NCBI GenBank assembly: GCA_964643985.1
Contig: CAZXUS010000004.1
Span: forward strand, 1-53,481
From: an uncultured Bdellovibrionales bacterium
GTDB taxonomy: Bacteria > Patescibacteriota > Minisyncoccia > Moranbacterales > DUUL01
Reading direction: 5' to 3'
Length of the DNA: 53,481 bases
Both the position numbers and the translations under genes were made by a program. The notes under the pieces are model-generated. The model did no database searches. It saw only the letters and a list, made by a program, of their open reading frames with translations, and had not been told where the DNA came from. Below are positions 15,719-53,159 of this stretch, piece after piece. How positions within the stretch are numbered: position 1 is the stretch's first letter; each line of letters opens with the position of its first letter.

Positions 15719-15893
15719 AAAGACGCCAGCTAAAACTGAAAAATCGCTTCATGCAAACCACATGTAGCGATTTTTTACTACCTAAAATCAAAATTATAAA
15801 ATAAATTTCCAAATTTAATTTTTCATTTTATATTACTACTGTATAACATTAGGTGATAACGCTAAATTTTTATTTTTACTACATAATATGTGA

Positions 15894-16070
15894 TTATTTC
15901 TTCCAGCCTTTGATAATCAAAACTTCTCCACGTTTAGCGACAACCACTTTTTGTTTTTCCCGCCAACCAAGTTCACGAATCATTTCGATTGGAATTGTCA
16001 CAGAAATTGATCGCTTGCCAACCTTAGTTAATTTTCTAACATTTCTTTCTTTTGAATTTTTGTCACCCAT
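15894..16070 (-). CDS. AbrB/MazE/SpoVT-family DNA-binding protein (58 aa; not in ORF track)
   Basis: MGDKNSKERNVRKLTKVGKRSISVTIPIEMIRELGWREKQKVVVAKRGEVLIIKGWKK; swapped-hairpin pattern. Confidence 0.88.
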   Translation of the reverse strand: MGDKNSKERNVRKLTKVGKRSISVTIPIEMIRELGWREKQKVVVAKRGEVLIIKGWKK

Positions 16071-16093
16071 AATTTTTATTAATTTTTATTTTT

Positions 16094-16129
16094 AAATAAG
16101 ATTACGTAATCGATTACGTAATCTTATTT
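16094..16129. promoter_or_regulatory. 36-bp perfect palindrome built on two tandem GATTACGTAATC palindromes (candidate operator)
   Basis: aaataagattacgtaatcgattacgtaatcttattt, ~25 nt upstream of the AbrB-like start. Confidence 0.7.
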
Positions 16130-16276
16130 TTTGTTTTAATCCTTAAAACATTCCACCGAAAAACAACCTTTATTCTCCAGACATTTTAAAATTTCTTTAT
16201 TATTTTCCGAAAAACATTTTTTATTAAAAAAGCTTTTACTTTAATATAATTATTTTAACTACCGTTTATTAATTAT

Positions 16277-16978
16277 TTAATAATATTTTTCTCTCACATC
16301 TTTAAATCTATCAAAATCTTTTATCCAACCTCTTGATTTAATATCCTTCTTCCATTTCTCAAAAATACATACAGCTTTTTGAGGATTAATAAATTTATCT
16401 TGCGCTAACCATAAAAGCAGACCTAAAGGATCAAAAACCTTGAAGCCTTCTACTCTGCTAAGTTGAGTTGATTGGTCTTTATCATTAACAAAAACAACAC
16501 TTTTTTTTCCTTGATTGTTTAAAAATCGCGCCAAATTGATATTATCTATATCAGCAGGTTTATTTTTTCTTTTAGCCTTACTTTCCATTCTCTTGTAAGG
16601 AGGAGAACAATCAAATAATGAGTTTTGATAAGTAGTGCTTTGATTAGTTAATGACACTATTTCAATTTTATTTTCACTACAAGGATCAATTTTTTCTTCA
16701 ATGAAAGAACCGTCGCTAGAAGAAATAACTAAATAATCGTCATCAGAAAAAGCGTTGTAAGTTTCGCTACTCTCAACAGAACAACCCAACAAAGTATTTT
16801 GGATTTGATAAACAAGCTCAGATTTTGAACCTTCTGAACTATTCAAAGAAATATTTTTGGAAGCTAAGAAATCTTCGACAATAACACGACTGTCATGAAA
16901 AGATTGAAACGATTGACTTGCTGATTGATCCAATATCCAAATAGAATCTTTATAATCATCAAAATTATAGGTATTCAT
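16277..16978 (-). CDS. Putative PIN-like domain protein
   Basis: WILDQS, ADIDNINLA, VFVNDKD acidic motifs; DUF3368-like tail KVFDPLGLLLWLAQDKFI; ATG 16978 just after the upstream stop. Confidence 0.55.
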   Translation of the reverse strand: MNTYNFDDYKDSIWILDQSASQSFQSFHDSRVIVEDFLASKNISLNSSEGSKSELVYQIQNTLLGCSVESSETYNAFSDDDYLVISSSDGSFIEEKIDPCSENKIEIVSLTNQSTTYQNSLFDCSPPYKRMESKAKRKNKPADIDNINLARFLNNQGKKSVVFVNDKDQSTQLSRVEGFKVFDPLGLLLWLAQDKFINPQKAVCIFEKWKKDIKSRGWIKDFDRFKDVREKYY

Positions 16979-16983
16979 TTTAT

Positions 16984-18012
16984 TTATTTCCACCCCTGCT
17001 TTACAATTCTCCATTGAACTTGTTGTTGTGGAATTTGGATTACTCCTTGAGGGGTTTGTTGGGGAATGTTAACTTGACCTTTTTTGAAATCGATTAAAAG
17101 ATCAAAATGATTGGATGTTTTTGCACTTTCGACAAAGGCAATTTGATATTCCTTTTTGATTTCCATACTATTACTTCCCAGTTCATCTTCAGGATTCCAA
17201 ATCATTCCAAAGTTCATTTCCTTTCGATATTCTTCATAGAGTTCGCTCATCGAATCCGCCAAAGAATCACTAGCTCTGACAACAGTTTTTACGCCCAAAT
17301 CGTCCTTGGCTTCTTTTCTACCAATATAGTATTGATGAGAATAAAGTTTTTCAGTGAAATACTCAACGACCTTTTTAGCTTCTTCTTCTTTCATTGGAGA
17401 ATTATGACTTTTCAAAAGTCTTTCGGCTAAAATTCTAATTAGATTGTAAGTCCGGTTGACATTCCCTAGAGCCAATGGATGAATTTGAGGATTAGCTTCA
17501 ACAAATTTATTAAAAATTTGAGTTAAATTTTCGTCGCTCTTGATTCCAAATTTGTTTTTGGCTAAATCCATATAAGCCACCACGTCCTCGACTGAAATTG
17601 GGATTTTATTTTGTTGATTTTTTGGGTCTTGAGGATTAAAAGCGTTAGCAGTTGAAGGATCAATCGGGGAAATTTCTGACAAATCACTCATTACGATTTC
17701 ATCCGCTCCCAAAGAAATCATAGTTGCAGCACTGTGAGCTTTATAAGGAATAATTACCGAGAACTTTTGGCAATACTCCCGAATCATAGAAACTAATCTC
17801 CAAGGAACCATAGTGTCGCCTCCAGTACTGTATAAAAATAAATCAATATTCTCTACTTTGCCAATTTGTCTTAATTGCTGACTAACAATTGGAATTATAT
17901 CCATAGCGACTTTAGCGCTCAAGGGACCTTGTCGGTCTCCTGTTATATAGGTAATGACTTTTGAATTTCTTTCTTTTTCTATTTTTTCAATTATTTTTTT
18001 TCTTTCACTCAT
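16984..18012 (-). CDS. ClpP-class serine protease (SDH_sah / S49-like family)
   Basis: LFLYSTGGD, AHSAATMISLGADEIVM, ISPIDP, YSHQYYI. Confidence 0.88.
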   Translation of the reverse strand: MSERKKIIEKIEKERNSKVITYITGDRQGPLSAKVAMDIIPIVSQQLRQIGKVENIDLFLYSTGGDTMVPWRLVSMIREYCQKFSVIIPYKAHSAATMISLGADEIVMSDLSEISPIDPSTANAFNPQDPKNQQNKIPISVEDVVAYMDLAKNKFGIKSDENLTQIFNKFVEANPQIHPLALGNVNRTYNLIRILAERLLKSHNSPMKEEEAKKVVEYFTEKLYSHQYYIGRKEAKDDLGVKTVVRASDSLADSMSELYEEYRKEMNFGMIWNPEDELGSNSMEIKKEYQIAFVESAKTSNHFDLLIDFKKGQVNIPQQTPQGVIQIPQQQVQWRIVKQGWK

Positions 18013-39406: not shown

Positions 39407-40648
39407 CTACTGTATTGGCGTTGGTGTTCGAGCGGGGACTGGAGTTGTCGCTCGAGCTGGAATTGAGTTTTGAATTGGAGGAACAAAAGTATTATTAATT
39501 TGAAGCTTCTCTAAAACCACCTTTCTAGTATAACATTCTAAACCAGCTGAATGTTCACTCCAATTGTTATTGGATTCGCTATAATAACCATAACTTTTAT
39601 AATCATCCGTCAAAGAATCATCAGACGGCAAAGAAAAAACTGCACAAATTTCAAACTCGCCCGTTCGAACTATTCCATCGGATGTTGAAGCAATGACAAC
39701 TCGATATGAATAAGGTTGTTTAGTTTCTGGATCTTTAAGATTAGAACAAGAAGAATAGCTAGAACTTCCAAGCTCGCTCAAAGAAACTGGCAACTTCTTA
39801 AAATCTTCCGCGTAATTCTCCACACAATTAGACAAAGTGGAAAGATTTCTTTCTCTCTGGTTATCGAAAGTTCTTTTCCTTTCAGTGGCTGGCGAACCAC
39901 CTGCAAAAAATCCTAAAATAATGCCAATAATAACAATACTTGAAACTATTAAGCCAAAATATTTAAAAATGTTTCCTGAGATTGGATTTCTATATTGAAT
40001 TTTTTTCCGTTCTAAAAAGTAAAAACTAAAAATTATTCCTGAAATTACGAAAATAGTCAAAGCCTTCAAGAAGAATCTAGCACTAAGCTCTCCTTGTAAA
40101 AAAGTAAAAACTGTCGCTATTAAATCTCCGATAATTGTAATTGAAACAACCAACAAAACCAAATAAGTCAACCATTTTGTTAATTTTGTTTCGGTTTTTC
40201 CTTCGTCTCTAGCAAAACTTCTAAACCACAATCGCATTGAAATAAAATAGATTGGAAAAGCAATTATTAAAGCAGCAATTGAATAATGAATCGCATTGGT
40301 TGATATTTTGTTGGAATAATAACTAGCTGAAAGAGCATCTGGAAAATATTTATTAATGATTTGATAAAAAAGAGTTCCCAAGGCAGTTGCCACTACTCCC
40401 AGAAGAATAAAAGAAAATAAATTAAGAGCAATTTCAACAGTCGATGATTTTTTTCCAAAAGTGGATTGCATCGTATCGCTAGGAACTGGAGTTCCTAGCT
40501 CAATCAAAGCCTTACTATAAACAGCATCTATTTGACTTTCAGACCAACCGACTGCCAACAACTGTTCTTTAATTTGAACTTTTGTCGCGCCAGATTGAAT
40601 CATTTTTTTTACATAACTCGAAAGTGAATCTTTTGTTAAATTTTCCAT
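39407..40648 (-). CDS. Multi-TM protein (DUF5671-like) with pilin-like extracellular domain and Pro/Thr tail
   Basis: KWLTYLVL..IGDLI..FLQGELSARF; DPETKQPYSY..FEICAVF. Confidence 0.75.
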   Translation of the reverse strand: MENLTKDSLSSYVKKMIQSGATKVQIKEQLLAVGWSESQIDAVYSKALIELGTPVPSDTMQSTFGKKSSTVEIALNLFSFILLGVVATALGTLFYQIINKYFPDALSASYYSNKISTNAIHYSIAALIIAFPIYFISMRLWFRSFARDEGKTETKLTKWLTYLVLLVVSITIIGDLIATVFTFLQGELSARFFLKALTIFVISGIIFSFYFLERKKIQYRNPISGNIFKYFGLIVSSIVIIGIILGFFAGGSPATERKRTFDNQRERNLSTLSNCVENYAEDFKKLPVSLSELGSSSYSSCSNLKDPETKQPYSYRVVIASTSDGIVRTGEFEICAVFSLPSDDSLTDDYKSYGYYSESNNNWSEHSAGLECYTRKVVLEKLQINNTFVPPIQNSIPARATTPVPARTPTPIQ

Positions 40649-40663
40649 ATTTTTTGTATTAGA

Positions 40664-40707
40664 GGACTATTTCCGATCATTCTTTTTGCTGTGATTGAAA
40701 ACAATCC
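40664..40707. mobile_element. Minimal TIR-only copy of the MITE family
   Basis: ggactatttccgatcattctttttgctgtgattgaaaacaatcc = left and right ends of 430-594 joined directly. Confidence 0.75.
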
Positions 40708-40830
40708 TATTGATTAATTTTTATCATTATAGCACAAAAAATATTTTTAAAAAAATTAGATAGAGACAATAACCAATTTTTGTGCTATAATGTTCCAAGG
40801 TAAATTACATATAGAAAGGAGGTGTTTTTT

Positions 40831-41037
40831 ATGAATAGTCTAAATTCGTTCGATTGGATTGCCGTTTTACTGTTGGCCATCGGAGGTTTGAATTGGGGTC
40901 TAGTTGGAGTTTTTAACTTTGATTTAGTCGCCACTATTTTCGGCGATATGTCAGCCCTATCAAGAATTGTTTATACTGTCGTCGGTATCTCTGCCATCTA
41001 CGTTCTAACTCTCTCAATGAAGCTTAAAAAGAGTTGA
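40831..41037 (+). CDS. DUF378 family membrane protein
   Basis: IGGLNWGLVGVFNFDLVATIFG..SRIVYTVVG; SD AAGGAGGTG; GTGCTATAAT upstream. Confidence 0.93.
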   Translation: MNSLNSFDWIAVLLLAIGGLNWGLVGVFNFDLVATIFGDMSALSRIVYTVVGISAIYVLTLSMKLKKS

Positions 41038-41041
41038 GTCC

Positions 41042-41170
41042 CAATTCAAAAAAGACAGTCTTCTTTCGCGAGACTGTCTTTTGGTTTCCACGATAAATCG
41101 AATTCTAATTTAAAATATTTTTGCAATAAAAAAGACGAGGGTTTTTCTCAAAAACCACTCGCCAGTTATT
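41042..41170. repeat. Left direct repeat: back-to-back terminator module
   Basis: Aligns end to end with 51265-51389, including identical ggtttttctcaaaaaccactcgcca. Confidence 0.85.
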
Positions 41171-41196
41171 TCATTAACATTTTCTTGTCCTTTCCG

Positions 41197-42435
41197 CTAA
41201 AAATAAAGAATTAAGTTAGCCAGAAAGGCATTAACTTTGTCATATTTTCCCCAAAAAGATTCTTGAGGTCCACCAACCAGTTGCAAGCCAATTTCGACTT
41301 GCCAATAATCTTTGAAATAAATAATCTTAGGACAGACAAAATAATCCCCGTCATCCAAATTCATGGTTCCCTCCAGCTCTAATCTCCAACAACTTCCCGC
41401 TCCTTTTTCATAAGAAATCCGGGTTAACATCGAATTGTTCAAATCCCGACGAAAATCAGGCACTCTGACAATCGATTCATCAGAAGAAACAACTTTTTCA
41501 TTGGCATATTGAACCAAAATACTCAGGGTGTCAGTTGGAGTAAAAACTCCATCAAATTCCTTGCGAATTCCGACAACATATTGCCAAAAATTATCCCCGT
41601 GGTCTTGATCATAATATCCTAACTCACCTTTTAGGATATAACCCCTGTCAATTTCGCGAAGAGCTGAAAAGGCATAAACCTTTTCTTTCGAATAACGAAG
41701 CTCAAGGATAGCGCCGTTTAGTAGTCCGTAGGGATTGTAACTAACTCCGTCATAAAACGCGGCCGTTAAATCCCATTCTCGCCAGTTCACTCCAGCTCGC
41801 AATGCATACTGGAATTGATTTTCGTCAACCATTTCTTCCGCTGTAATTCCCAACGGAAAATCCTCCTCCCAACGACCTTTCGGAAGTTTAGAAGCAGTAA
41901 ATTTTGGCACCGCCACTATTTCCAAGAAATAATTTTCCTCATCAAATCGCAAATCAAAAGCAGAAATTCCAACTCGCTCCCAATCCGCTAAAAACATCCA
42001 GTCTCTTGGATTTAGAACATCCATCGGAGAAATTGTATCGGTCACTGACCAATCAGAAATTTGCTTTCCAATTTTTAAGCTGAATTTTTCTCCTTTCCAA
42101 TCAAAATAAGCTTTTTTAAAATTTACAGCCCATCTTTCATTTGATTCAACCATGCTATTAATTATTCCCGCCGCAAAATTTTCACTATCCAAGCGAAAAT
42201 CTCCTTCCAACACTAAGTTGGATGAATCATTGATTTCAACCACAACTTTGGGCTGAATTCTTGCTTCAAAATAGCTTTGCTTACTTTTTGAAGATTTTTC
42301 TTCATAAATGATCGCTTTAAATTCAGTTCTCAGGCTAAGCTCAGAAATAAAATCTTCCTGACTTTGATTAGCAAAAGCGAAACCATTCAAAAAAGAAAAA
42401 ACAACTAAAATTACAATTATTTTGATTATTTTCAT
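41197..42435 (-). CDS. Putative outer-membrane beta-barrel-like protein of the type found with MMPL/LolA-like genes
   Basis: Signal peptide, KIGKQISDW..SPMDVLNPRD, amphipathic beta strands, C-terminal Phe. Confidence 0.7.
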   Translation of the reverse strand: MKIIKIIVILVVFSFLNGFAFANQSQEDFISELSLRTEFKAIIYEEKSSKSKQSYFEARIQPKVVVEINDSSNLVLEGDFRLDSENFAAGIINSMVESNERWAVNFKKAYFDWKGEKFSLKIGKQISDWSVTDTISPMDVLNPRDWMFLADWERVGISAFDLRFDEENYFLEIVAVPKFTASKLPKGRWEEDFPLGITAEEMVDENQFQYALRAGVNWREWDLTAAFYDGVSYNPYGLLNGAILELRYSKEKVYAFSALREIDRGYILKGELGYYDQDHGDNFWQYVVGIRKEFDGVFTPTDTLSILVQYANEKVVSSDESIVRVPDFRRDLNNSMLTRISYEKGAGSCWRLELEGTMNLDDGDYFVCPKIIYFKDYWQVEIGLQLVGGPQESFWGKYDKVNAFLANLILYF

Positions 42436-42456
42436 TTCACCCTCCTTTATGTTCTT

Positions 42457-43215
42457 TTAATCAAAAAACTTTTTAGTGAATATCCAACTTGGAATTTTTG
42501 GATTAATTTCTCTCTTAACCACCTTAAAAAAAGTGGTTCTGGCCAGAAAATTGTTTTTAATAATCACCAAATTGGGTCGCCAGGCTTCACCATCAAACTG
42601 AATTTCTTGGTTAGTCTGAACTTTTTCTACTTGACCTGATTTCCAATATACAATTTCCTCCACCGCCCAGGTATTTTGATTAATTTTGAAAACTCTTTTT
42701 TCGTAAACTGGGTTTTCAAAAGAATCCTTAGGACAAGCTTCAATCCACCAATAGTCCTGATTATCCTTCTTGATTTTATAATCATAATCAGCAATATTTT
42801 CTCCAGACAACTGATCGGTATCCTTATAGGTAAAATCAGTTCCAACAAAAGGTTTTCCTTGATTCTTAGTTGCCACCGATCGGGACTTACTCCAAGATTT
42901 CATTCGAAGATCAATTGTAGAACTGCTAACTTCTCTTGAAATCTGTAATTTAGTTCCTTTAATTCTTCTCGGTGCCGTCAACTCGATTGATACAATATCT
43001 TTATTCTCTGAAAAACTCATCCAGCGAGTTAAAGCTTTTTTTTCTTCAAAACCGCTTTCATATTTAACGGTTATCTCAGCTTCTTCAACTTCAGTTTCAA
43101 TTTGACGAAAATTTTCCCAACTTTTTGTAACGATTTCTGTCGCTGTTAAAGCCTGAGCGTTTGAAGCGAAAAAAAACAGCCCGATTACCATAGCCATACC
43201 AATGAATGTTCTCAT
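42457..43215 (-). CDS. LolA-like outer-membrane lipoprotein-sorting protein
   Basis: Signal peptide (AQA), AP..IKGTKL, FVGTDFTYKD, IFTKKFF. Confidence 0.85.
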   Translation of the reverse strand: MRTFIGMAMVIGLFFFASNAQALTATEIVTKSWENFRQIETEVEEAEITVKYESGFEEKKALTRWMSFSENKDIVSIELTAPRRIKGTKLQISREVSSSTIDLRMKSWSKSRSVATKNQGKPFVGTDFTYKDTDQLSGENIADYDYKIKKDNQDYWWIEACPKDSFENPVYEKRVFKINQNTWAVEEIVYWKSGQVEKVQTNQEIQFDGEAWRPNLVIIKNNFLARTTFFKVVKREINPKIPSWIFTKKFFD

Positions 43216-43242
43216 TTTATTCTCCCTCTATTAATTTGGTTG

Positions 43243-43276
43243 GGGATGAGTCTGATATTATTATCAGACTCATCCC
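43243..43276. other. Perfect 15-bp intercistronic hairpin
   Basis: gggatgagtctgata-ttat-tatcagactcatccc; no U-tract on the coding strand. Confidence 0.7.
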
Positions 43277-43281
43277 ATTTT

Positions 43282-45783
43282 TTAATTTATCAATTTTACT
43301 AATTTTGCCTCCTCAATTCCAATATCTTCAACTTTCTGAGAAGTTTTTTTAATGCACTTGAACAAAATCGCTGGCATTAGAACTAAAGCCCCAAAGCCAC
43401 AAGTAAACATCATAAAAACCAGTAAAACACCTGTCAGCGCTATCGGATTAAAATTAGAAAAAATAAGAAACGCAAAGCAAAAAGCATTGACTAAAATATC
43501 AACAATATTCACTTTCCCTTTTTCACAAATAGCAATTTTTAAAGCTTTTTGATAATTAGATCCTCCCATCAAAGCATCATTGAAATCATCAATGAAATGC
43601 AAATTGAAATCAATAGCGGCATTAATCGCCAAGGGTACAATACAAGCCATTGCTTGATCTAAAGGAATTTTGCACAAAACCATCAGATAGACAATACAAG
43701 CCGAAGAAAACACAAATGGAATCGCCATGGCAACCCCAGTTCTGATTTTATACAAAACATAAATTTGTTTTTTTTCATCAAGAAAACTGGAGCTTCTAAC
43801 TTTTAACCATAAAGAGCAACAAACCATAACTATAATAAAAGAAGTTATCATATTAGCTGGTTGCCTTTTTTGAATATACTTATCAGTTTGATGATAATAA
43901 TGTAAACGTCCAAAAGGCAAACATTTAAAATTTAGACCTCCTTTATCAATCAACTTTACCATAAGCTCAGCTTGTCTTTCTAATTGATTTGAATCATCAG
44001 CCAACAAAGATAAAATTATATTGATACCCTTTTCGTACTGAAGCTGATTAAAGATATTAAAACCCAAGTCCCATTCTATAGTGCTAAAAATGTCCTGTAC
44101 TTGTTGACGTGTTTCCGGAAAATCCAATCCGTATTGCCTTTTTGAAATAAAAAGCACCGTATCAACGATTGATTTGGAAGTTTTAATTCCTTCTATTTCT
44201 TGCGCCTTCTTTTGCAGATAATAATAAGCCCTAATAACTTCTGGATCATATACATCCCCCTCTTTAACTTGAACCAAAAAAGATAACTTTCCAAACCCAT
44301 ATCTATCCTGTTGATTCAAGAACAATCTAGCTCTATCAACAATCGTCCCTTTTAGATAATCAATCGGGTTGGTGCCTGTTTTAATATAAGCTTGTCTATT
44401 GATATCAAAGTTTTTATAAACCCAAAAATCATGACCAACAAATATCAAAGCTCCAACAATTACAACTAAACTGAAAATAGTTGCGAGCCAAAATGTTTTT
44501 TGACGTGGAAAGTAGGTTAGGATCCGATAAAGACCTTCAGTAACATTAACCAGAAAAATCTCTCCCATCTTAACAATCCGATTTTTTTCTTTTTCAACAA
44601 CGTCACCTCCAAAGATCACCTGCAAAGCCGGTAAAAGCCATCTAGTCATAACAACTAAATAAAAAATGCCGATGGCTGATAAAATTCCCATTTCAATTAA
44701 GCCCCTGTTTTCTATTGAATACAAAGTTAAGAAGCCAAAAATAGCAATAATTGCAACAATGTAAATTTTACCGTTAAACCTTCTGGTTTTCTTCCAAATT
44801 TCTTGAGGCAAAAGTTCTGGAAATTTTTCTCGATAAGAATTATAAGAATCAAACTTTCGAGTCGAAAAAGAAATTCCGGCAATAATAATAGCCGTAAAAA
44901 CAAACAACATATAAACTCGCTCTTTAATTGCTTCCCCCGCCAATTTAACATCCAACAAGAACAAGTATCCGACTGTTCCTCGAATCCAAAATAATCCGAG
45001 CACAATAATCAGCCAACAATAAAAAGATTGTTTTATGGAACCATTTAAAGGATAAAGAACGAATATTACTAAAAGCAATCCTATTGTAGAAAACTTAAGG
45101 ATATCAGAAATTAAAGCCGCATCCATTAATCCACGACCAAAAGGCCAACCCGAAACAAGAATTTTTTCATACTCAACCACTGGATAAACATCGCTCTTAA
45201 TAAACCACTCCCAAGTAATTACGTTTCTGTCTTCCAACAAAGACGCAATTCTATTCCGAATATCAATCTCGCTATAATTCGATGGTAAAAACACAATTAT
45301 TTGAGCATAATCAAAATTTTTACCAACAAGCACCTCGTAAACACCCGGATTTTTTTTGATTTCCGCTCTCCATTCTTCTAGATTCCAATCAGAATTTTGG
45401 AACATTTCTTCATTGACATAGGGGTATCCAAGCTCTCCTTTCTGCTTATAATCAATTGCCTTAGCTAAACTCAAAATTCCATACTCAGGGAAAAAATTTT
45501 TCACTTTTTTATGAAATTCCAACAAAAACAATAAATCTTCTTTGAGTAAGCCCTTTTCAAAAGGAAGAACAAAACTAAATTGATCTCCACCTTCAAAACC
45601 CTTGACGCCCAACTTCCGAACTTCTTGCTCAGACTGATAATAGAAATTTTTTTTATCCATAAGGCCATTACTCAAAAGCCCGCCTTTAGGACAAATCCAA
45701 AAACCATAAACCATAACCAAAGATATTAATCCAGTCACGATGAGAATAAACCATTCTTTTTCTTTCCTTAAAATTTTCATCAT
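43282..45783 (-). CDS. MMPL/RND-family transporter
   Basis: Two repeats of TM + large loop + 5 TM; AINAAIDFNLHF, FLIFSNFNPI..G. Confidence 0.85.
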   Translation of the reverse strand: MMKILRKEKEWFILIVTGLISLVMVYGFWICPKGGLLSNGLMDKKNFYYQSEQEVRKLGVKGFEGGDQFSFVLPFEKGLLKEDLLFLLEFHKKVKNFFPEYGILSLAKAIDYKQKGELGYPYVNEEMFQNSDWNLEEWRAEIKKNPGVYEVLVGKNFDYAQIIVFLPSNYSEIDIRNRIASLLEDRNVITWEWFIKSDVYPVVEYEKILVSGWPFGRGLMDAALISDILKFSTIGLLLVIFVLYPLNGSIKQSFYCWLIIVLGLFWIRGTVGYLFLLDVKLAGEAIKERVYMLFVFTAIIIAGISFSTRKFDSYNSYREKFPELLPQEIWKKTRRFNGKIYIVAIIAIFGFLTLYSIENRGLIEMGILSAIGIFYLVVMTRWLLPALQVIFGGDVVEKEKNRIVKMGEIFLVNVTEGLYRILTYFPRQKTFWLATIFSLVVIVGALIFVGHDFWVYKNFDINRQAYIKTGTNPIDYLKGTIVDRARLFLNQQDRYGFGKLSFLVQVKEGDVYDPEVIRAYYYLQKKAQEIEGIKTSKSIVDTVLFISKRQYGLDFPETRQQVQDIFSTIEWDLGFNIFNQLQYEKGINIILSLLADDSNQLERQAELMVKLIDKGGLNFKCLPFGRLHYYHQTDKYIQKRQPANMITSFIIVMVCCSLWLKVRSSSFLDEKKQIYVLYKIRTGVAMAIPFVFSSACIVYLMVLCKIPLDQAMACIVPLAINAAIDFNLHFIDDFNDALMGGSNYQKALKIAICEKGKVNIVDILVNAFCFAFLIFSNFNPIALTGVLLVFMMFTCGFGALVLMPAILFKCIKKTSQKVEDIGIEEAKLVKLIN

Positions 45784-45834
45784 CCATCTCCTCTTTATTG
45801 AAGTATATGATTATCTTTTTTTATTTAATTCTTC

Positions 45835-45887
45835 AGTTTTCAAGGTCCTAATACAACAAAAGTCAGCCTGTAATGACTAACTTTTTT
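45835..45887 (-). promoter_or_regulatory. Hairpin followed by boxA-like motif upstream of the MMPL operon
   Basis: Minus strand aaaagttagtcattacaggctgactttt ... GGACCTTGAAAACTG. Confidence 0.5.
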
Positions 45888-46023
45888 GTTTTTTTATTAA
45901 TTCGGAAAAACAATTTTTAGAATTTTGCTTCAATCTAATTTAATTGCTTTTCACTCCTTATTTATACATCATTTTAATCAATTTGTAAAGACCACAGATA
46001 TAAAATTTTGATTTTGATTTTGA

Positions 46024-48240
46024 TTATTTTAATAATTGAGGTTTAAAATCCTTTTTAAGCTCTACTATAAATTGACTGCCCTTCCCAACCCCGTCCGAAA
46101 TAGCAAAGACTTTTCCTTTATGAGCATCAACAATTTTCTTGCAAACATACAATCCTAAGCCAGTTCCCTCGGTATTCAAGCTACTACTTCCCTCTCCTCT
46201 TCTGAATTTATCAAAAATATACTCTACCTCTTCTTTTCCCATTCCCTTGCCGGTATCAGAAATTATTATTCTAATTTTACTTCCCGACTCTTTTACTTGA
46301 ACTTCAATCCCTCCTGTCGGCGTATATTTAATAGCGTTGTCTATTAAATTAGAAATAACCTCATGCATTTTACTTTTATCAAAAACAAAAGAATGAATTT
46401 TTTTAGTTGGTTTAATATATTTAATTTTCAAATTTTTATTTTCCGCTTCAAGATTAAAACCCTCAACAATTCCTTCCACCATATCAGCAATGTCATTATT
46501 TCTAAAAGCAAAAGTAAATTTCCCAAATTCAATTCTCGACAAACTCAAAAGATCATTGACCAATTTAATTAGTCTTTCATTTGAAATAAAAATTTTCTTC
46601 AAAGCAGTGTCAACTTCCTTTCCGATTCTTCCATAATCACCATCTCTAATCAAAGAAATATAGCCTTTAATTGAAGTCAATGGAGTCCTCAACTGATGCG
46701 ACGCAATTGAAATAAATTCATTTTTAGCCGAATCCAATTGCTTAAGACGTTTATAGGCCGCAGAAAGTTTTCTGTTCATAGCCGTCAAGTCAGTGTTGGC
46801 TTTTTCAACTTCTCCAGTAGCCTGTCTAACTTCTTTTCTTAAACGTACATTAAAATCCTTAGCCTCCGAATAAAGTTGCGCATTTTCAATTGCAATCGCG
46901 GCCTGTCCCGCAATAATTTCTAAAACTTGAAGATCTTCATCATTATAGGCTTCACCAGTTTCTTTTGATCCAAAAACTAAAAGACCAATTAAATCATTTT
47001 TTACTTTCAATGGAATTAACAATTCAATTTCCAACGATGCTAGCAATTCAATTAAATCCTTAGTTTTATCATTATAATGAAGACTTTTAAATTCTTCGAC
47101 AATAACTATTTGATTTTTTTTAATAAAATTATTTTCCATTACTAAGTTTTCAGCAAAGGTTTTTCTTTTTCTGATATTAAAACCTTTATTGTAAAGCAAT
47201 TTATAATTTTTATTTTCATCATTTCGAGCCAAAACACCGAAAGCTTTGGTATGCAAATTTTTAGAAAAAGTTGAATACAAAAATTCATAAACTTTATCAA
47301 TATTCAAAACAGTTTTCAAACCATTGCTAGTTTTCAAAATTAATTTTCCGCTGTCGTAAAGAGAAGTAAAAAAATATTTATTAGCTACTTTAAAAAATCT
47401 TTCTTTGACGTAGGGGAATGTGGCCGCTGCAAAGAAAATCGCCATCAAATCCGTCCAAAAAATAAACTCGCCTAAATATTTACTGGCGATAATTTTTACC
47501 ACCGAAGCCAAACCGAAAATAACACTCAAAGAGATAATATAGACAGAAGATTGCCGAATAACTAACTTAATATCCATAAAACGATAACGGACAATGGCGT
47601 AAAAAATAATTATAGTAAAAATCAAACCAGAAATATAAGCAAAAGGATAAATACCGATTCCATAAGCAGGTAAATAAGCTAGAGGACCAATAGTTGCTAA
47701 AATAAAAAATGCTACAAAACAATATTTGATTCTTTCTTTTTCAATTAAATTAGTTTGTTGCTTAAAATATTTAAAAACTATAATAAACCAAATCAGAATA
47801 TAGATAGCAAAATAAATCAAGAAAAAATGATGAAAAAATTGAGCCTTTGAATGAGCTCCCCATCTATAAATAAAAGCCCCATCTATAAATAAATCTGTTG
47901 GTAAAAGAGCAAGAAAAAAACCAGAAAATAAATAACCGACAATAACAAGAAAATTATTTTTTATAATTTTAAATTTCGTTAAAGCCAATCCAAAATGTAA
48001 CATCGCAACTGGAATAAAAATCACCCCAACATAAACAAATTTATCCCAAAAAATTATTTTTTCAGAATCTCCTTCATTGAAAAACATCATAAAAGTTCCA
48101 AACATCCAAATAGCAGAAAAAAGTGAAAAAAAAGCAAAAGTAATATTCAGCTTATTTCTCTTCCCTCTAATAAAAATCGCGATTCCCAAAAAAAACACCA
48201 CTATAGCACTAATCAAAGGAAAAATTGTTATTAAATTCAT
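46024..48240 (-). CDS. Sensor histidine kinase (7TM N-terminus, GAF, HisKA, HATPase_c)
   Basis: Multi-TM N-terminus, QAAIAIENAQLY, SHQLRTPLT, NLIDNAIKYT, DTGKG, GTGLGL; ATG 48240 preferred. Confidence 0.95.
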   Translation of the reverse strand: MNLITIFPLISAIVVFFLGIAIFIRGKRNKLNITFAFFSLFSAIWMFGTFMMFFNEGDSEKIIFWDKFVYVGVIFIPVAMLHFGLALTKFKIIKNNFLVIVGYLFSGFFLALLPTDLFIDGAFIYRWGAHSKAQFFHHFFLIYFAIYILIWFIIVFKYFKQQTNLIEKERIKYCFVAFFILATIGPLAYLPAYGIGIYPFAYISGLIFTIIIFYAIVRYRFMDIKLVIRQSSVYIISLSVIFGLASVVKIIASKYLGEFIFWTDLMAIFFAAATFPYVKERFFKVANKYFFTSLYDSGKLILKTSNGLKTVLNIDKVYEFLYSTFSKNLHTKAFGVLARNDENKNYKLLYNKGFNIRKRKTFAENLVMENNFIKKNQIVIVEEFKSLHYNDKTKDLIELLASLEIELLIPLKVKNDLIGLLVFGSKETGEAYNDEDLQVLEIIAGQAAIAIENAQLYSEAKDFNVRLRKEVRQATGEVEKANTDLTAMNRKLSAAYKRLKQLDSAKNEFISIASHQLRTPLTSIKGYISLIRDGDYGRIGKEVDTALKKIFISNERLIKLVNDLLSLSRIEFGKFTFAFRNNDIADMVEGIVEGFNLEAENKNLKIKYIKPTKKIHSFVFDKSKMHEVISNLIDNAIKYTPTGGIEVQVKESGSKIRIIISDTGKGMGKEEVEYIFDKFRRGEGSSSLNTEGTGLGLYVCKKIVDAHKGKVFAISDGVGKGSQFIVELKKDFKPQLLK

Positions 48241-48299
48241 TATATTTATTTTATAATTTTGATAATTATATTCTAGCAAATAATTTAAAAAAACAAAAG

Positions 48300-48334
48300 A
48301 AAAAGGCGTCCGAATTTTTAATCCGTCCGCCTTT
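48300..48334 (-). terminator. Intrinsic terminator with tandem GA internal loop
   Basis: Minus strand ggcg-ga-cggatt aaa aattcg-ga-cgcc tttt. Confidence 0.6.
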
Positions 48335-48404
48335 AACTATTTTTTTATAAAATCCAGTTCCCAAAAACATTTGCTTTCTTCCGAGAAAAACTCGGTTGAA
48401 GTTT

Positions 48405-49604
48405 TTAAGGTTGAAGTTTTAATTGAGAATTTTCCCTCATTTTTAGATCAAATGAGGTAATTCTTCTTTTAAAGCAAAATCCTGGAATTGGATGAGAAAT
48501 TCCCATCCGATTAAATAGATCTTGTATGATAGCCATATTCTTCAAACTGGTTTCCATCCAGTTTGTTTTCAAAATTTCCTCTTTTCGGATATTATTTTTC
48601 AAAGCGTAAGCTAGAGCCATTGCCTCGAGAAAACAACCGAAAAGAGTTCTCTGGCTTGGAAACCCAAAGGCCTTGGCCACAGTATCACCAAAAACATAAC
48701 TTAGTTTTCGACAGTAGCCATTACCGACAGTTACCAGAACCAACCTGTCTTCCATACTAAGGTAATCCTTGACAGAAAAGACGGCTGGCTGACAAACATC
48801 CAGCATTAACATTTTTTTGTCTTCCCGGCGAATCTGATCGATTCGCTCAGGAGTCGGGACACTTTTCCCAGCGTGAGCACAATTAACAAACGCATCAACC
48901 TTACCCATCTCTGAATAAGAATCCACTATTTGCAAACCAAATTCTTGGGAAATTTTCCGAAGCGCTTTTTTGTTATTACCAATCGCCACCAGATTTTGAA
49001 AACCTTGAGCAACCAGAAATTCTAATGTAGCCCTTCCCAGCGTCCCGTAAGGACAATTAATACCAATCCTATAAAAAACCTGAATACCAGATTTTTCGAA
49101 GGAATACCGGATCTGTCCCTGTTTAATTAGAAACGTTCCGTTATCGCCCTTAGTCCACAAAATATTCGGGTATTTTATTTTAAGTAGCTCAGCATTTTTA
49201 CCAAAAAGATGCTTCGTGCTAGCAGCTAAAAGTCCGACTCGGGGGTTACGTTTGGCTGCCCAAGCTATCGCTTTCAAAAAAGTCTCACGAGCTTTCTCTT
49301 TGGCTGGACCAGAGATTTCAGAATTTGGATTATCCATTTCATCAGCATACACGGTCATCGCCCGTGTCCTACCAGAAACGGCTTTCAAAGAAAACTTATT
49401 CCACCAAAATCTCGGGCCATTGAAATGGCCTTCTGTTGGATTCCATTCTCCAGTGAAAGATACTTTATCTTGATGATGCCTCATATTAGTAATCATGATG
49501 GCATCAATTTTTGTAGCCATATTCAAAATGAATCTGAGAGTCGTTCTCCAATCAAGAAGAGCCATCATAATTCTTCCCAAATGACCTTTGAGTGTTGAAA
49601 TCAT
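48405..49604 (-). CDS. Acyl-ACP reductase-like / COG5322-type NAD(P)-dependent enzyme
   Basis: GLLAAST..TKGDNGT..PYGTLG..LDVCQP..QRTLFGCFLEAMAL parallels the motif order of cyanobacterial AAR; start moved to ATG 49604 after SD AAGGAG. Confidence 0.65.
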   Translation of the reverse strand: MISTLKGHLGRIMMALLDWRTTLRFILNMATKIDAIMITNMRHHQDKVSFTGEWNPTEGHFNGPRFWWNKFSLKAVSGRTRAMTVYADEMDNPNSEISGPAKEKARETFLKAIAWAAKRNPRVGLLAASTKHLFGKNAELLKIKYPNILWTKGDNGTFLIKQGQIRYSFEKSGIQVFYRIGINCPYGTLGRATLEFLVAQGFQNLVAIGNNKKALRKISQEFGLQIVDSYSEMGKVDAFVNCAHAGKSVPTPERIDQIRREDKKMLMLDVCQPAVFSVKDYLSMEDRLVLVTVGNGYCRKLSYVFGDTVAKAFGFPSQRTLFGCFLEAMALAYALKNNIRKEEILKTNWMETSLKNMAIIQDLFNRMGISHPIPGFCFKRRITSFDLKMRENSQLKLQP

Positions 49605-49615
49605 AAATATTCTCC

Positions 49616-49735
49616 TTAAGCCTGAATCAGGCTTTTTATTTTCGTAAAAACCACAACCGGAGCACAAACCCAAAATACAGGAGAAAACAGCGCCGGAACA
49701 ACATTAGCCACAATTTCAATCAACATTTTTTTCAT
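49616..49735 (-). CDS. 39-aa hydrophobic peptide (not in ORF track)
   Basis: MKKMLIEIVANVVPALFSPVFWVCAPVVVFTKIKSLIQA; SD AAGGAAGGAG; stop overlaps the next SD (TAAGGAG). Confidence 0.65.
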   Translation of the reverse strand: MKKMLIEIVANVVPALFSPVFWVCAPVVVFTKIKSLIQA

Positions 49736-49864
49736 TTTCTCCTTCCTTAAATTTTCAAGGTTAATTTTTTATTTAAAAAATTCCGGATTAATTTCAAAAC
49801 TGAAAAATCAACACGCAATTTTCAAAAATATTTTAATAAATTTATTATTTTTAATTTTCTTATT

Positions 49865-50074
49865 TTATTTATGACAACAGCAGATAATAAATGAAACCAT
49901 CCAGGCCAAACCGACAATTGCCATTAAAATTAATAATTTTGTCAATAAATACTGAGCATCAAAATCATTTAATCCGTTGGCTTTTCTGAAATAACTAATC
50001 CCCAACGCTATTGAAAAAAATAAAAAAGTTATAGTTTCAATTTTGAACCAAATTGGCAATTCTTTTTTTTTCAT
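49865..50074 (-). CDS. Small two-TM protein
   Basis: 69 aa, two hydrophobic segments, ends ICCCHK. Confidence 0.6.
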   Translation of the reverse strand: MKKKELPIWFKIETITFLFFSIALGISYFRKANGLNDFDAQYLLTKLLILMAIVGLAWMVSFIICCCHK

Positions 50075-50126
50075 TGTTTTGTTTTAATTTTTATTTTTTA
50101 AAAAATATTTTTATATTTTTTTACAC

Positions 50127-50154
50127 AAAAACCAAGCAAAAAGCTTGGTTTTTT
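50127..50154. terminator. Terminator-like hairpin in a leader region
   Basis: aaaaaccaagc-aaaaa-gcttggtttttt. Confidence 0.65.
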
Positions 50155-50306
50155 ATTTTATATTCAATTTTTTTAACTTGAAATATCCTGCGCAATCCAA
50201 AATATTCGTTCCTGCGACCAGAAAATCTTCTTATGTATATTTCTATTTTTTTAAATAAATAATTTTTCATTTGATCTGAAATTAATTGTTTACTTCAGAT
50301 ATTAAT

Positions 50307-50369
50307 ACTATACCTCATAAATAATATTTGTCAAGGTAAAATGAAACAAATTTATTGCATTGTTTCATT
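50307..50369 (-). promoter_or_regulatory. Promoter with adjacent 10-bp inverted repeat (candidate operator)
   Basis: TTGACA (50334-50329), 16 nt, TATAGT; aatgaaacaa-N10-ttgtttcatt at 50340-50369. Confidence 0.55.
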
Positions 50370-50539
50370 CACAGCTTAAAACAAAGCTTATCTCACATTT
50401 TTTATGTTAAATTATTTTGGACAATGTTTAAAAAATGACTCTAAAATAATTTTTAAGAACTTATTTTTAAGAACTATTGTAAAAATTATTTAAACATGTC
50501 ATAATTTTCAATCGATAAAATATTTAAATTTTAAAAACG

Positions 50540-51253
50540 ATGCAAAGCTATAATTATCTATCAAGTGAACTTACTAAGCTAGGCTTAACCAAAAAAGAAG
50601 CTGATATCTATCTAGCGCTTTTGGAAGTGGGTTATTGTAGTGTTCAAAAAATTGCCGAAAAACTCGAATTAAGTCGACCGACTGTCTATAGAGTTTTAAA
50701 AGACCTCAAAAAGAAAAATTTAATTAACACCATCGAAAAAGGAAAAAGAAACCATTACATCGCCGGCTCTCCGGATTCTCTTTTGAATATGCTTAGAGTC
50801 AAAAAGAGAAAAGCTGAAGAACAAGAACGAGAGTTTTTGAGAATTATCAATACCCTTCAAGACCAATACAGTTTTTCTTCCAAAAAAAATGTTATTGAAA
50901 ATTTTATCGATAAAAAAAGACAACTTGCCTTGGACAAGCTATCTAATGGCTCTACTCAAAAAATTTATGTTATTTCAACTTATTTTGACAAAGAACTTGA
51001 TGAAACTTTTTCTAATATTCATAAAAAACTAGGCTTTGCATTTCAAATCAAACAACTTCATTCTTTTGAAATAAAAAAAGACACAGACATTTTTTTTCAA
51101 AACAAATTTTTTAAAAACGATTTAGATACCAAAAACATAGTCATCACCGATAAAGTTTTTATTATCAAAAAAAACATCATCCACATAGTCAAAGAAAAAG
51201 ACGTCATCAATTCCTACAAATTAATGTTCAATTCCCTTTGGAAAAATTTATAA
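50540..51253 (+). CDS. TrmB-family HTH transcriptional regulator
   Basis: LGLTKKEADIYLALL..IAEKLELSRPTVYRVLKDL..Y.A.SP. Confidence 0.9.
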   Translation: MQSYNYLSSELTKLGLTKKEADIYLALLEVGYCSVQKIAEKLELSRPTVYRVLKDLKKKNLINTIEKGKRNHYIAGSPDSLLNMLRVKKRKAEEQEREFLRIINTLQDQYSFSSKKNVIENFIDKKRQLALDKLSNGSTQKIYVISTYFDKELDETFSNIHKKLGFAFQIKQLHSFEIKKDTDIFFQNKFFKNDLDTKNIVITDKVFIIKKNIIHIVKEKDVINSYKLMFNSLWKNL

Positions 51254-51264
51254 AAAAAGAATTT

Positions 51265-51389
51265 CAATTCAAAAAAAACAGTTTTTCGCTAAGGCTGTCT
51301 TTTTATTTCTGTAATATAGATCCTATTTAAAAATATTTTTATAATAAAAAAGGCGAGAGGTTTTTCTCAAAAACCACTCGCCATTTATT
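51265..51389. repeat. Right direct repeat: back-to-back terminator module
   Basis: Diverged copy of 41042-41170. Confidence 0.85.
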
Positions 51390-51416
51390 GTATTTTTTTC
51401 ATTAATCTAATTAAAA

Positions 51417-53159
51417 TTAAGGAAACCTCCGTTTAATCCTGCTTGTCCTTCTTTCAATTTTTGGTCTTATAATTAGTCGTCTTTCTCTTCTAATAGGAAG
51501 AATTATTCCAAGCCGAGAATCCCTGCTAAAGATTATTTCTTCTCTACTTTTTAAAACAATTTTGACAAGAGGAGATTCCGTTGCTGTTATGGTTATTGTT
51601 TTTGATTGAGAAAAACCATAATAGTCTTCAACGGTAAGGGTGGCATAAAAAACTCCAGCTTCAGCAAAAGTATGAGTTGGGTTTATGACGGGAGTAGTAT
51701 TTCCGTCTCCGAAGTTCCAATCCCAATACAAAATATCACCGATTGATTGGTCGGTAAAATTAACAGTTAAGGGAGCAGAACCAGAGATTTGATCAGAGAT
51801 AAACTCAGGAATAATTTGAGGAAGAGCGATTTCTAATTTTCCGTATTCGTCCGATTTTGATTCGTCAGAAACATCGCGGTCATCACCGTCTTCAGTTTCA
51901 ATGTCAGTATAGAAATAAAGAGTAAGCTCTCCTTCTGTGCGGTTTTGTTCGGTTATAGGAAAAGTGAAGGAGTGTTTTCAGAAACCGTCACAGTTTTGAA
52001 ATCCTCACTGATAGAAATTCTGATTCTGCCAGAGTGTTTAGATTCTTTTTCACCTTCGTCTATATCGACATCTTCATCTTCAAGGCGATATCTCTTATCA
52101 GGATTAAAGTCTTTCTTGTCTTTAACCACCAGATAATCGATGTCAATATTTTGAAGATCATAATTAGATTTGTTTTTACCTCTAACTTCCATTTCTATAT
52201 CATAAGCTTGTCCAGGCGCCATACTGATATCTACTTCGTGATGCCAGGAACCTTCCTTGTAGGGTCGGATTTTGCAATGAGTGATGTGAATGTCGGTGGA
52301 AGAGGTGCAAGACTTCTTCAACTGGAAGCGGGTAAATTGCGTTGCCAGATGAATCAACAACTCCTTCATTATTATAACTTTCACCTTTTGACCAATCAGG
52401 TTCAGATCCGAAACCACAATAATATGGTTCAAAATCACCTATTTGACCCTTTCCCTCTCCTCCCATATACCACAAAAAACGGTCTTGAGAAAACAAAGAT
52501 TCTCGAGGCGGGCGTATATTGAAAAAATTGTTCCCGTCTGAATCGCTCTTCGCAAGAAACCAACCAGCAAACTCACTTTTAACAAATGAACCATACCGAT
52601 CATATCTATCTTCAAAATCGTTTTTAAGTGAATAGACATCCCCAACTGATTGAACCTGGACTTCATATTTAGCCACATCAACATTGGAATGTTTCTTGAA
52701 GGGAAAAGTTGCGGTATACCATCTATTGGCCGTTAATTTTGACGGATCATTGATAGCCAGAGTATACTTATTGACACTATCAGATTGATAATTATCATCA
52801 TACCTCAAATTGCCGAAAAACCCATAAACTTGAACATCTTCCAAATCATCCGAATCAAAAACGCCAGAATGATCTATGATATCAATTTCAAAACCCATCA
52901 GTTTCCTTCTTCCGTCAGAAAAAGTTTGTTTGTAAAAATCGATATTATCATCAGAAAGATAAAAACCCACGATAACCACATTTTCTGCCTTACAAACCTT
53001 GATACCTCCTTTTTGAGGAATATATTCATTATTTATATCAATATCCCAAACATCAGGACTTTCATCTTCGATATTCGACAAAACCATTGCCGAAGAAAAC
53101 GATACCAAACAAACCAAGCTGAAAAATAATCCTATTGTTATAGAAATAAGTTTCTTCAT
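51417..53159 (-). pseudogene. Secreted PKD-domain protein split over three frames
   Basis: Signal peptide and SD GGAGG at 53159; shifts near 52310 and 51975; last frame reads GSAPLTVNFTDQS..WDWNFGDG..NPTHTF..TLTV (PKD). Confidence 0.8.

Follow-up and report, generated by a model that had tools for sequence, protein, structure and literature searches.

An acyl-ACP-reductase-like enzyme beside a mosaic 7TM histidine kinase and an MMPL-LolA-barrel exporter: a candidate lipid cue circuit in a small bacterial genome

The window analysed here is the whole of contig CAZXUS010000004.1 (C4, 53,481 nucleotides), one of the 67 contigs of a 95% complete, 1.05-Mb genome (G000) that was submitted as an uncultured Bdellovibrionales bacterium and is placed by GTDB in the Patescibacteriota; the genomes of its relatives span 0.5-1.4 Mb. 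It contains a 10-kb island bracketed by a direct repeat. The minus strand of the island carries, in this order, genes for a 69-aa membrane protein, a 39-aa open reading frame (ORF), an enzyme, a sensor histidine kinase, an MMPL transporter, a LolA-like protein and a beta-barrel, and a TrmB regulator is transcribed divergently. ORF and Pfam analysis finds all eight genes, and the repeat around them, where the original prediction had placed them. The enzyme combines the fold and the cysteine motif of AAR, the reductase of acyl-ACP (ACP, acyl carrier protein), its homologues are linked to kinase genes across phyla, and within the genus the enzyme cassette is swapped beside a kinase with a mosaic sensor. 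We read this as a circuit for a self-produced lipid cue, in which an acyl-derived product would be exported and matched to a seven-transmembrane (7TM) sensor: a tentative reading, to which we give a little less than an even chance.

The enzyme is encoded on the minus strand (48405-49604) as a stand-alone protein of 399 amino acids. No Pfam family matches it at E 0.01, and NCBIfam returns only a weak match to AAR: 15.5 bits and E 0.008 with TIGR04058, an equivalog model whose cut-off is 449.7 bits. The family is rare, with 12 proteins at E <=0.001 in a word-indexed search and 117 cluster representatives among 1.84 billion, 34 of them below 1e-30. For a profile of 11 family members the best solved relative is AAR (6jzu, E 3.6e-5), and the FGCF of the family aligns with the FACF of AAR that contains the catalytic Cys294; the terminal amidation domain (TAD) is missing from the best 60 of the 73 matches of this profile to solved structures. 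The AlphaFold2 (AF2) model of the enzyme, with a pLDDT of 82.5, is matched by Foldseek to AAR (6jzu_A, E 2.7e-14, TM 0.72) and to the TAD of CarI, from the carmabin pathway (9e4s, E 1.6e-13, TMq 0.66); the next fold class lies far behind, at a TM of ~0.33. A look-up in the ESM Atlas agrees, pointing to a COG5322/AAR-like neighbourhood.

Judged by model and sequence, the enzyme has the two-domain fold of AAR (6jzu/6jzq; TIGR04058), an F-x-C-F-x-E cysteine at a helix start that aligns to Cys294, and a GxxGxxG-type nucleotide-binding motif. To this extent the original prediction of an AAR-like enzyme stands; the enzyme is no AAR orthologue, given the TIGR04058 score, and no aldehyde-deformylating oxygenase (ADO) was found. 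The two proteins are ~15% identical, and the neighbours of the enzyme are kinases and exporters instead of alkane genes. ADO (PF11266) was not found in the genome, nor among those neighbours of enzyme homologues that were annotated. With TAD, the enzyme shares a length of ~400 aa, the fold and an invariant Cys, which in TAD is reached by a phosphopantetheine arm according to a preprint (bioRxiv 10.1101/2024.10.28.620694). Unlike TAD, which is fused to the end of a nonribosomal peptide synthetase (NRPS) module, it stands alone, and no NRPS domains were seen in the window or among the annotated neighbours. In the same preprint, the invariant Cys of both AAR and TAD is described as taking the acyl group from the phosphopantetheine arm or carrier, AAR as then reducing the thioester with NADPH to yield a free aldehyde, and a 'Cluster 4' of discrete TAD homologues is mentioned (10.1101/2024.10.28.620694). 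For koreenceine, a report proposes that a COG5322 domain fused to an aminotransferase releases a polyketide aldehyde (PMC6498172).

Because the fold and the Cys are shared with AAR and TAD, yet the AAR family cut-off is far from reached, we assign the enzyme on profile searches, models and conservation to an uncharacterised third, stand-alone branch of the AAR/TAD (COG5322) superfamily. By eye, the family has D269-V-x-x-P273, with a Val at the place of an Asp in the Asp-Asp-Ser-Gly-cisPro loop of TAD, where that Asp faces N1 of the nicotinamide. Two other assignments were dropped: a chemistry like that of glutamyl-tRNA reductase (against the profile, 1gpj scores no better than E 0.028, and the Foldseek matches listed do not include it), and shikimate dehydrogenase or F420 oxidoreductase, whose Pfam matches span the Rossmann part only and are below cut-off for the window protein.

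Among 79 relatives of the enzyme, 74 positions are conserved in at least 90%. Of these relatives, 96% have Cys324, in the FGCFLE motif, and 100% have E327; the window enzyme keeps both, as part of 51 retained positions that include K131, G153-D-N-G-T157, G187, G190, C242, H244, D269 and P273. Its Rossmann motif, earlier called degenerate, turns out to be only mildly altered: C-P-Y-G-T-L-G stands for the G-P-Y-G-F-L-G of the family, and the first Gly, found in 94% of the relatives, is the only glycine of the family pattern that is lost, with G187 and G190 kept. Compared with AAR, the protein is longer at its N terminus by ~60-90 residues, and this extension has its own conserved positions, occupied by Arg, Asp and His.

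The genes of this family are linked to those of sensor kinases. Our scan for homologues took one genome per species; 124 stretches matched, 100 of which encode a relative, and the best 80 loci were kept. They come from Patescibacteria-type metagenome-assembled genomes (MAGs), Beta- and Gammaproteobacteria, Desulfobacterales-type MAGs, Synechococcales and Nitrospirota. In 57 of the 80, the enzyme has a kinase core at most 3 kb away: 36 are 7TMR-DISM kinases, 16 HisKA_7TM and 5 other, the last including CHASE8 kinases in three Nitrospirota loci. Four (L007, L019, L029, L039) of the 23 loci without a kinase nearby show a kinase fragment at the contig end. Within the same loci, the 423 kb closest to the enzyme hold 58 kinase-core ORFs and the other 770 kb hold 5, a density 21-fold higher near the enzyme; counting the two 7TM kinase types alone, the figures are 52 near and 1 farther away. 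The co-occurrence for which the original prediction had proposed a neighbourhood analysis is thus present well outside the window.

The two 7TM kinase types take different positions. The 16 HisKA_7TM+GAF kinases, in loci of the candidate phyla radiation (CPR) type, sit directly downstream of the enzyme; the 7TMR-DISM kinases of Beta- and Gammaproteobacteria are mostly directly upstream of it, some convergent, and often adjoin a NarL/LuxR-type regulator. Between the HisKA_7TM and 7TMR-DISM modules there is no detectable homology, with an hhalign probability of 0.08% from shallow alignments.

Exporter genes are a second, less widespread companion. Of the 80 loci, 20 have a homologue of MMPL, 17 one of the LolA-like protein and 16 one of the barrel, which follows MMPL-LolA in those 16. 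In 19 of the 80, all proteobacterial, MMPL is directly 3' of the enzyme on the same strand, forming an enzyme-MMPL-LolA-barrel operon with 4-nt overlaps in L045 and L054. The CPR-type loci keep the kinase as the only neighbour of the enzyme in 16 cases; an exporter gene is found only in L035. A search from the pump side, with the MMPL alignment as query, gave 22 metagenome loci: 10 have the enzyme directly upstream of MMPL, 6 are cut there, one (L107) shows the arrangement of the congener G004 described below, and 5 of low GC have no enzyme, their neighbours being glycosyltransferase, Wzy_C or methyltransferase genes.

Fatty-acyl genes are also seen beside the enzyme: aldehyde dehydrogenase in Chitinimonas, a PlsC-type acyltransferase in Nitrospirota, a phosphopantetheinyl transferase (PPTase) in Synechococcales, FabV in a Vibrio, a GMC oxidoreductase in L023 (with an ORF of the same cluster in L036), enoyl-CoA hydratase in L041 and a hot-dog thioesterase in L004. 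In the Nitrospirota loci L078, L081 and L082, the enzyme stands in a neighbourhood of cyclic di-GMP type, with a TonB receptor, a YfiR-like protein, the CHASE8 kinase and PlsC upstream, and GGDEF and REC-HD-GYP proteins downstream. As for the names of the sources, the enzyme of L012, titled as an uncultured Bdellovibrionales MAG, is identical to that of L083 (G018), of the window's own family, and the submitter's label is probably wrong; the 'Gammaproteobacteria' titles of the CPR-type loci L003, L021, L023, L035 and L036 look doubtful for the same reason.

Closer to the window, strong matches to the enzyme occur in 2 of 60 relatives, G018 (E 5e-166) and G002 (E 2e-81), and G010 has a weak match (9e-10) in the same slot before a kinase. 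In the congeners G002 and G004, TrmB is 70% and 71% identical to its window counterpart, the 69-aa protein 64% and 48%, and the kinase 65% and 59%. Between the 69-aa gene and the kinase, the slot is filled in G002 by a 27.5%-identical enzyme, and in G004 by two other genes, recognised with Pfam: a 295-aa double hot-dog thioesterase (4HBT_2, E 6e-16) and an 83-aa ACP (PP-binding, E 4e-10), at 15844-16989 on the minus strand of L101, with the same arrangement at L107 4162-5307. This one slot is a swappable cassette, holding three different thioester-processing solutions within a genus. No exporter is present in G002; G004 has MMPL, LolA-like protein and barrel at 43%, 55% and 60% identity, and its whole island stands at the window's left junction, beside DUF5671 and DUF378 genes.

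The kinase changes along with the cassette in its sensor only. Its 7TM part (residues 1-224) is 44% identical to that of G002 and 28% to that of G004, and 58-64% identical to those of the distant lineages L012, L014, L003 and L013; the rest of the protein is 74% (G002) and 72% (G004) identical. In a tree of residues 300-738 the three congeners form a clade with a support of 100/99. The 7TM tree rejects this clade, the log-likelihood being lower by 51.7 (approximately unbiased test, p = 1.2e-6). On these sequences the kinase is best described as a mosaic, whose cytoplasmic part is orthologous in the three genomes and whose 7TM sensor is not. A second joint transfer of enzyme and 7TM domain, suggested by the grouping of the G002 7TM with that of L073, is not borne out: the G002 enzyme is roughly equidistant (36-38%) from many relatives, and L073 is outside its 7 best matches.

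Over 16 loci, how close an enzyme is in identity to that of the window goes with the identity of the 7TM (Spearman 0.53, p 0.035, overstated as the loci are related) and not with that of the cytoplasmic part (-0.24). An independent test, using the other 7TM family (7TMR-DISM), gives the same picture: in 31 proteobacterial loci, pairwise enzyme identity correlates at 0.57 with the 7TM, 0.40 with the core and 0.35 with the ectodomain. The partial correlation of enzyme and 7TM given the core is 0.46, reached in 0 of 2000 permutations; that of enzyme and core given the 7TM is 0.07. The layout of a synthase next to its kinase, which the original prediction had taken from known quorum systems, gains support from both sides: the joint change of 7TM sensor and enzyme cassette over an orthologous core, and the divergence test in Proteobacteria.

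The kinase itself (46024-48240, minus strand) contains, by Pfam and alignment with relatives, HisKA_7TM, two further hydrophobic helices, GAF, HisKA and HATPase_c. The scores are 46.2 bits for PF16927 (cut-off 28.6), 61.4 for PF00512 and 92.8 for PF02518, and the phospho-acceptor box S-H-Q-L-R-T-P is invariant in 18 kinase sequences. The ORF spans 46024-48279; reading of the sequence and alignment with relatives make ATG 48240 the most likely start, not TTG 48279. No response regulator adjoins the kinase in the island, as had been noticed at the outset. On contig C1 of the same genome, 29803-30612 (minus strand) encodes a 269-aa double-receiver protein without an output domain, which matches (E 2e-42) the regulators encoded directly after the enzyme and kinase in L014, L018 and L023. 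By this similarity, it is a candidate partner of the orphan kinase.

A 7TM domain that is matched to what the enzyme makes or handles would best explain both the linkage and the way in which cassette and sensor are exchanged jointly. In the proposed circuit, an acyl group would pass from a thioester to Cys324 of the enzyme and then be released, with reduction by NAD(P)H to a fatty aldehyde as the most likely route. This product would be the ligand of the kinase, whose 7TM sensor would be matched to it, and the kinase would signal to a receiver protein whose gene lies elsewhere. Movement of the hydrophobic product out of the membrane may fall to MMPL pump, LolA-like carrier and barrel, and TrmB would set local transcription.

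Lipid autoinducer synthases beside sensor kinases are familiar from CqsA/CqsS (Vibrio), LqsA/LqsS (Legionella) and RpfF/RpfC (Xanthomonas). The island resembles them in that the gene of a presumed enzyme for an acyl-derived small molecule adjoins that of a polytopic membrane histidine kinase. It differs in an enzyme that is AAR-like and neither aminotransferase nor crotonase, in sensors of the HisKA_7TM and 7TMR-DISM types and in the attached MMPL-LolA-barrel exporter. In staphylococcal agr, with a peptide signal and a sensor of 6 TM helices, the hypervariable block comprises the genes that make the signal along with the sensing half of the kinase. The variable enzyme cassette and sensor half beside a conserved kinase half recall these specificity groups; unlike agr, the cassette here encodes an enzyme that processes thioesters, and three genomes are the basis of the comparison. 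Finally, the island recalls the MMPL/RND lipid exporters, such as mycobacterial MmpL, HpnN and Thalassolituus TOL_3187/3188 (PMC6304351), in which an MMPL-type pump with a LolA-like domain and an adjacent porin-like protein are linked to long-chain hydrophobic compounds. In contrast to the Thalassolituus fusion, MMPL, LolA-like protein and barrel are separate genes in the island, coupled to an AAR-like enzyme and a kinase. We found no paper that joins AAR-like or COG5322 proteins with 7TM kinases or MMPL-LolA exporters, in a literature search outside which most subscription journals lay.

If the circuit is real, the third, stand-alone branch of the AAR/TAD superfamily gains a physiological context, and two large orphan classes of 7TM kinases, HisKA_7TM and 7TMR-DISM, their first candidate source of ligand. 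It would also offer a testable module of lipid signalling or export in culturable freshwater Proteobacteria (Chitinibacter, Vogesella, Curvibacter, Rheinheimera, Undibacterium, Methylovulum), and a locus that may handle or sense lipids at the surface of small-genome, episymbiont-like bacteria without lipid synthesis, including an outer-membrane-type barrel without the usual machinery.

Several observations weigh against this circuit. The same gene order would be expected if the kinase merely regulated the adjacent operon. HisKA_7TM kinases also occur near the exporter without the enzyme, beside glycosyltransferases and Wzy_C (L102, L108), which suits envelope building. The three-genome group was defined by kinship labels but named after the identity figures had been seen, and the correlation tests rest on related, non-independent loci, where shared ancestry and unequal rates can inflate the figures. 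The window enzyme has lost 23 of the 74 conserved positions, among them R290, D292 and N275, and its branch is very long, at 2.81 where the median is 0.29; it may have an altered function or substrate, or be in decay. Omp85/BamA (PF01103), which would fold the barrel, was not found in G000, G002 or G004. The 95%-complete genome of the window, moreover, shows no PP-binding carrier, ACPS-type PPTase, AMP-binding acyl-activating enzyme or ketoacyl synthase, so that acyl-ACP, the usual substrate of AAR, has no visible source. The idea of scavenged acyl chains meets the same obstacle, with no visible route to a thioester. One weak PlsC-type match is present. The PFOR gene of the window implies that CoA thioesters exist; carrier proteins are present in G010 and G018, and G004 has an ACP in its slot, yet an ACPS-type PPTase was not found in its genome.

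The best of the alternatives, possible although clearly less probable than the circuit, is an envelope-lipid module under two-component control: the enzyme would make a surface or outer-leaflet lipid or its precursor, the exporter would place it in the envelope, and the kinase would sense some other cue and switch the operon on, with no signal molecule at all. The proteobacterial layout is that of an ordinary local two-component system, the kinase being the first gene of the operon and the NarL/LuxR-type regulator divergent. The enzyme-less exporter trios of low GC, with their glycosyltransferase, Wzy_C and methyltransferase neighbours, fit this module as well. So does Thalassolituus, where a fused MMPL-LolA and an adjacent porin-like protein (TOL_3187/3188) are reported as induced on C28 alkane, which points to bulk hydrophobic transport (PMC6304351). 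Such a module leaves unexplained why the kinase is the sole kept neighbour of the enzyme in the 16 CPR-type loci, and why two 7TM sensor families without detectable homology were recruited. Nor does it account for a sensor that changes jointly with the enzyme cassette over a vertically inherited kinase core, or for an enzyme divergence that follows the 7TM region and not the core.

That preferred circuit can be extended into something bolder, which we regard as rather improbable: a novel class of lipid-signal circuit, in which AAR-like thioester enzymes make a cue, 7TM kinases read it, and agr-like specificity groups exchange cassette, sensor and perhaps pump together. In this BamA-less lineage, the secreted LolA-like carrier and the barrel might act at the interface with a diderm host, the barrel sitting in the outer membrane of the host and passing lipid or signal between the partner cells.

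Somewhat less likely again is that the island is a horizontally acquired, poorly integrated cassette, with an enzyme without substrate, a barrel without outer membrane and drifting genes: the module would be real in diderms and have no working role here. The missing carrier, PPTase, acyl-activating enzyme and BamA favour it, as do the long branch and altered positions of the enzyme. The distribution agrees, with the enzyme strong in so few relatives and the barrel found in none of the 400 other genomes that were sampled from the phylum; G004 lies outside this sample, yet has the barrel. Shine-Dalgarno (SD) sequences point the same way. A strong SD precedes 3.7% (longest start) or 8.9% (any early start) of the 699 ORFs of at least 150 aa in the genome, over a background of 1.5%; one is present before five neighbouring island genes, namely enzyme, 39-aa ORF, MMPL, LolA-like protein and barrel, and before the cassette genes of G002 and G004, and absent before kinase, TrmB, 69-aa gene and 49-aa ORF. 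Since lacking an SD is the norm of the genome, TrmB and the kinase have a native look, and cassette and exporter, with SDs that only 4-9% of the genes possess, that of newcomers: this reverses the suspicion that the missing SDs betray a different origin of kinase and TrmB. Other facts speak for a maintained function. All ORFs are intact and of full length, the models fold confidently, the catalytic Cys and the retained motif positions listed above are in place, and GC and codon usage of the island are within the range of the genome, neither setting it apart. In G004, the island has the same left junction and intact genes at only 43-60% identity, and divergence without decay points to selection.

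Least likely of all, and improbable in our view, the enzyme-like protein could be an accessory sensor that binds NAD(P)H or an acyl thioester, docks on the 7TM or cytoplasmic face of the kinase and reports a metabolic or redox state with no exported product, which would suit the tight, ancient adjacency to kinases, 7TM co-variation through physical contact and an N-terminal pair of conserved, partly hydrophobic helices with a possible seat on the membrane, but not the near-invariant Cys motif and many active-site-like positions across 79 relatives, nor the translationally coupled exporter operon of Proteobacteria and the thioesterase and ACP replacement in G004, both of which imply a product.

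All three exporter genes are on the minus strand. The MMPL/RND (HAE3-like) membrane transporter (43282-45783, 833 aa) has the SD GAGGAG upstream, and its MMPL assignment is marginal, with 22.5 bits for PF03176 against a gathering threshold of 20.5. HAE3 (TIGR00921) matches at E 7e-21 and 73.9 bits, below the cut-off of 351.9; the protein is far below the cut-offs for HpnN (TIGR03480, 41.5 against 751.85 bits) and for the actII MMPL family (TIGR00833, 31.9 against 874.7). The LolA-like lipid carrier (42457-43215, 252 aa) has a signal peptide and a clear match to PF17131 (E 8e-19, 68.4 bits against 30). Last in the operon, the barrel (41197-42435) is a secreted protein of 412 aa, with an outer-membrane porin or exporter fold according to its signal peptide, AF2 model and Foldseek matches: the model has 22 strands at a pLDDT of 86.2, and OmpM1 (8bym, E 7e-10) is its best match, followed by MOMP, AlgE and Occ within E 7e-10 to 4e-9. 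This porin-fold protein stays intact at 60% identity between two species in which BamA was not found. Porin-fold barrels with a LolA-like partner are found on low-GC metagenome contigs too (L102, L103, L104, L108, L111), in a housekeeping context of GatB, Der, Pth and S1.

The direct repeat is ~130 nt long. Its left copy (41030-41180) lies between the DUF378 gene and the barrel gene, contains two terminator-like hairpins and is 79% identical to the right copy (51265-51389); there are no others in the 1.05-Mb genome. We considered the copies as att sites of a recent insertion and rejected this, since G004 carries the island at the identical left junction. Within 20 kb around its island, G004 has a partial match to the left copy alone. 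No tRNA was found in a scan of the window, hence no tRNA-linked integration site, and an Rfam scan of 40600-51800 returned only snoR28, below threshold (24.7 against 45 bits). The repeat itself is real.

Between TrmB and the 69-aa gene lies a unit common to the three congeners (50121-50334, minus strand; also L092 8821-9274 and L101 17382-17531). It comprises a promoter-like TTGACA-16-TATAGT (50334-50307), an inverted repeat (ATCTGAA...TTCAGAT; in G002 there is an 11-nt difference in the loop), a basic ORF of 37-49 aa beginning MK[NK]YLFKKI (49 aa in the window, 50270-50121) and a terminator hairpin (50153-50127). Rfam has no match to it; from its sequence, a small protein, a leader and a small RNA are all conceivable. 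Terminator-like sites number 12 in the scan, with 6.4 expected: one follows the 49-aa ORF and another separates the kinase from the exporter operon (45858-45885, minus strand, from the consensus scan only). A further hairpin of this kind follows the enzyme by eye. Promoter-like sites are not commoner than in shuffled sequences (41 and 41.7), and conservation backs 50334-50307 only.

Among the smaller genes, the TrmB-family regulator (50540-51253, plus strand; PF01978, E 1e-15) has its G002 and G004 counterparts at the same position, and is also found in L011 and L016. The 69-aa protein (49865-50074, minus strand) has two predicted membrane helices and a C-terminal Cys cluster, ending in CCCHK in the window and CCDK in G004; it has no family match and is conserved within the genus alone. 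The hydrophobic 39-aa ORF (49616-49735, minus strand) has a strong SD and a stop 11 nt before the enzyme start; no relative of it was found anywhere we searched. The remaining genes of the window are a core set: EF-G, S7, FtsZ, FtsA, a Mur ligase, a PBP, MraW, sigma-70, primase and PFOR. Gene content and genome size suggest a bacterium of CPR/Patescibacteria type. The island's outer neighbours are a DUF378 membrane protein (40822-41037, plus strand, E 5e-24) and, on the other side, a 104-aa ORF (51417-51731, minus strand) that is mostly a PKD domain and may be a fragment of a larger surface protein.

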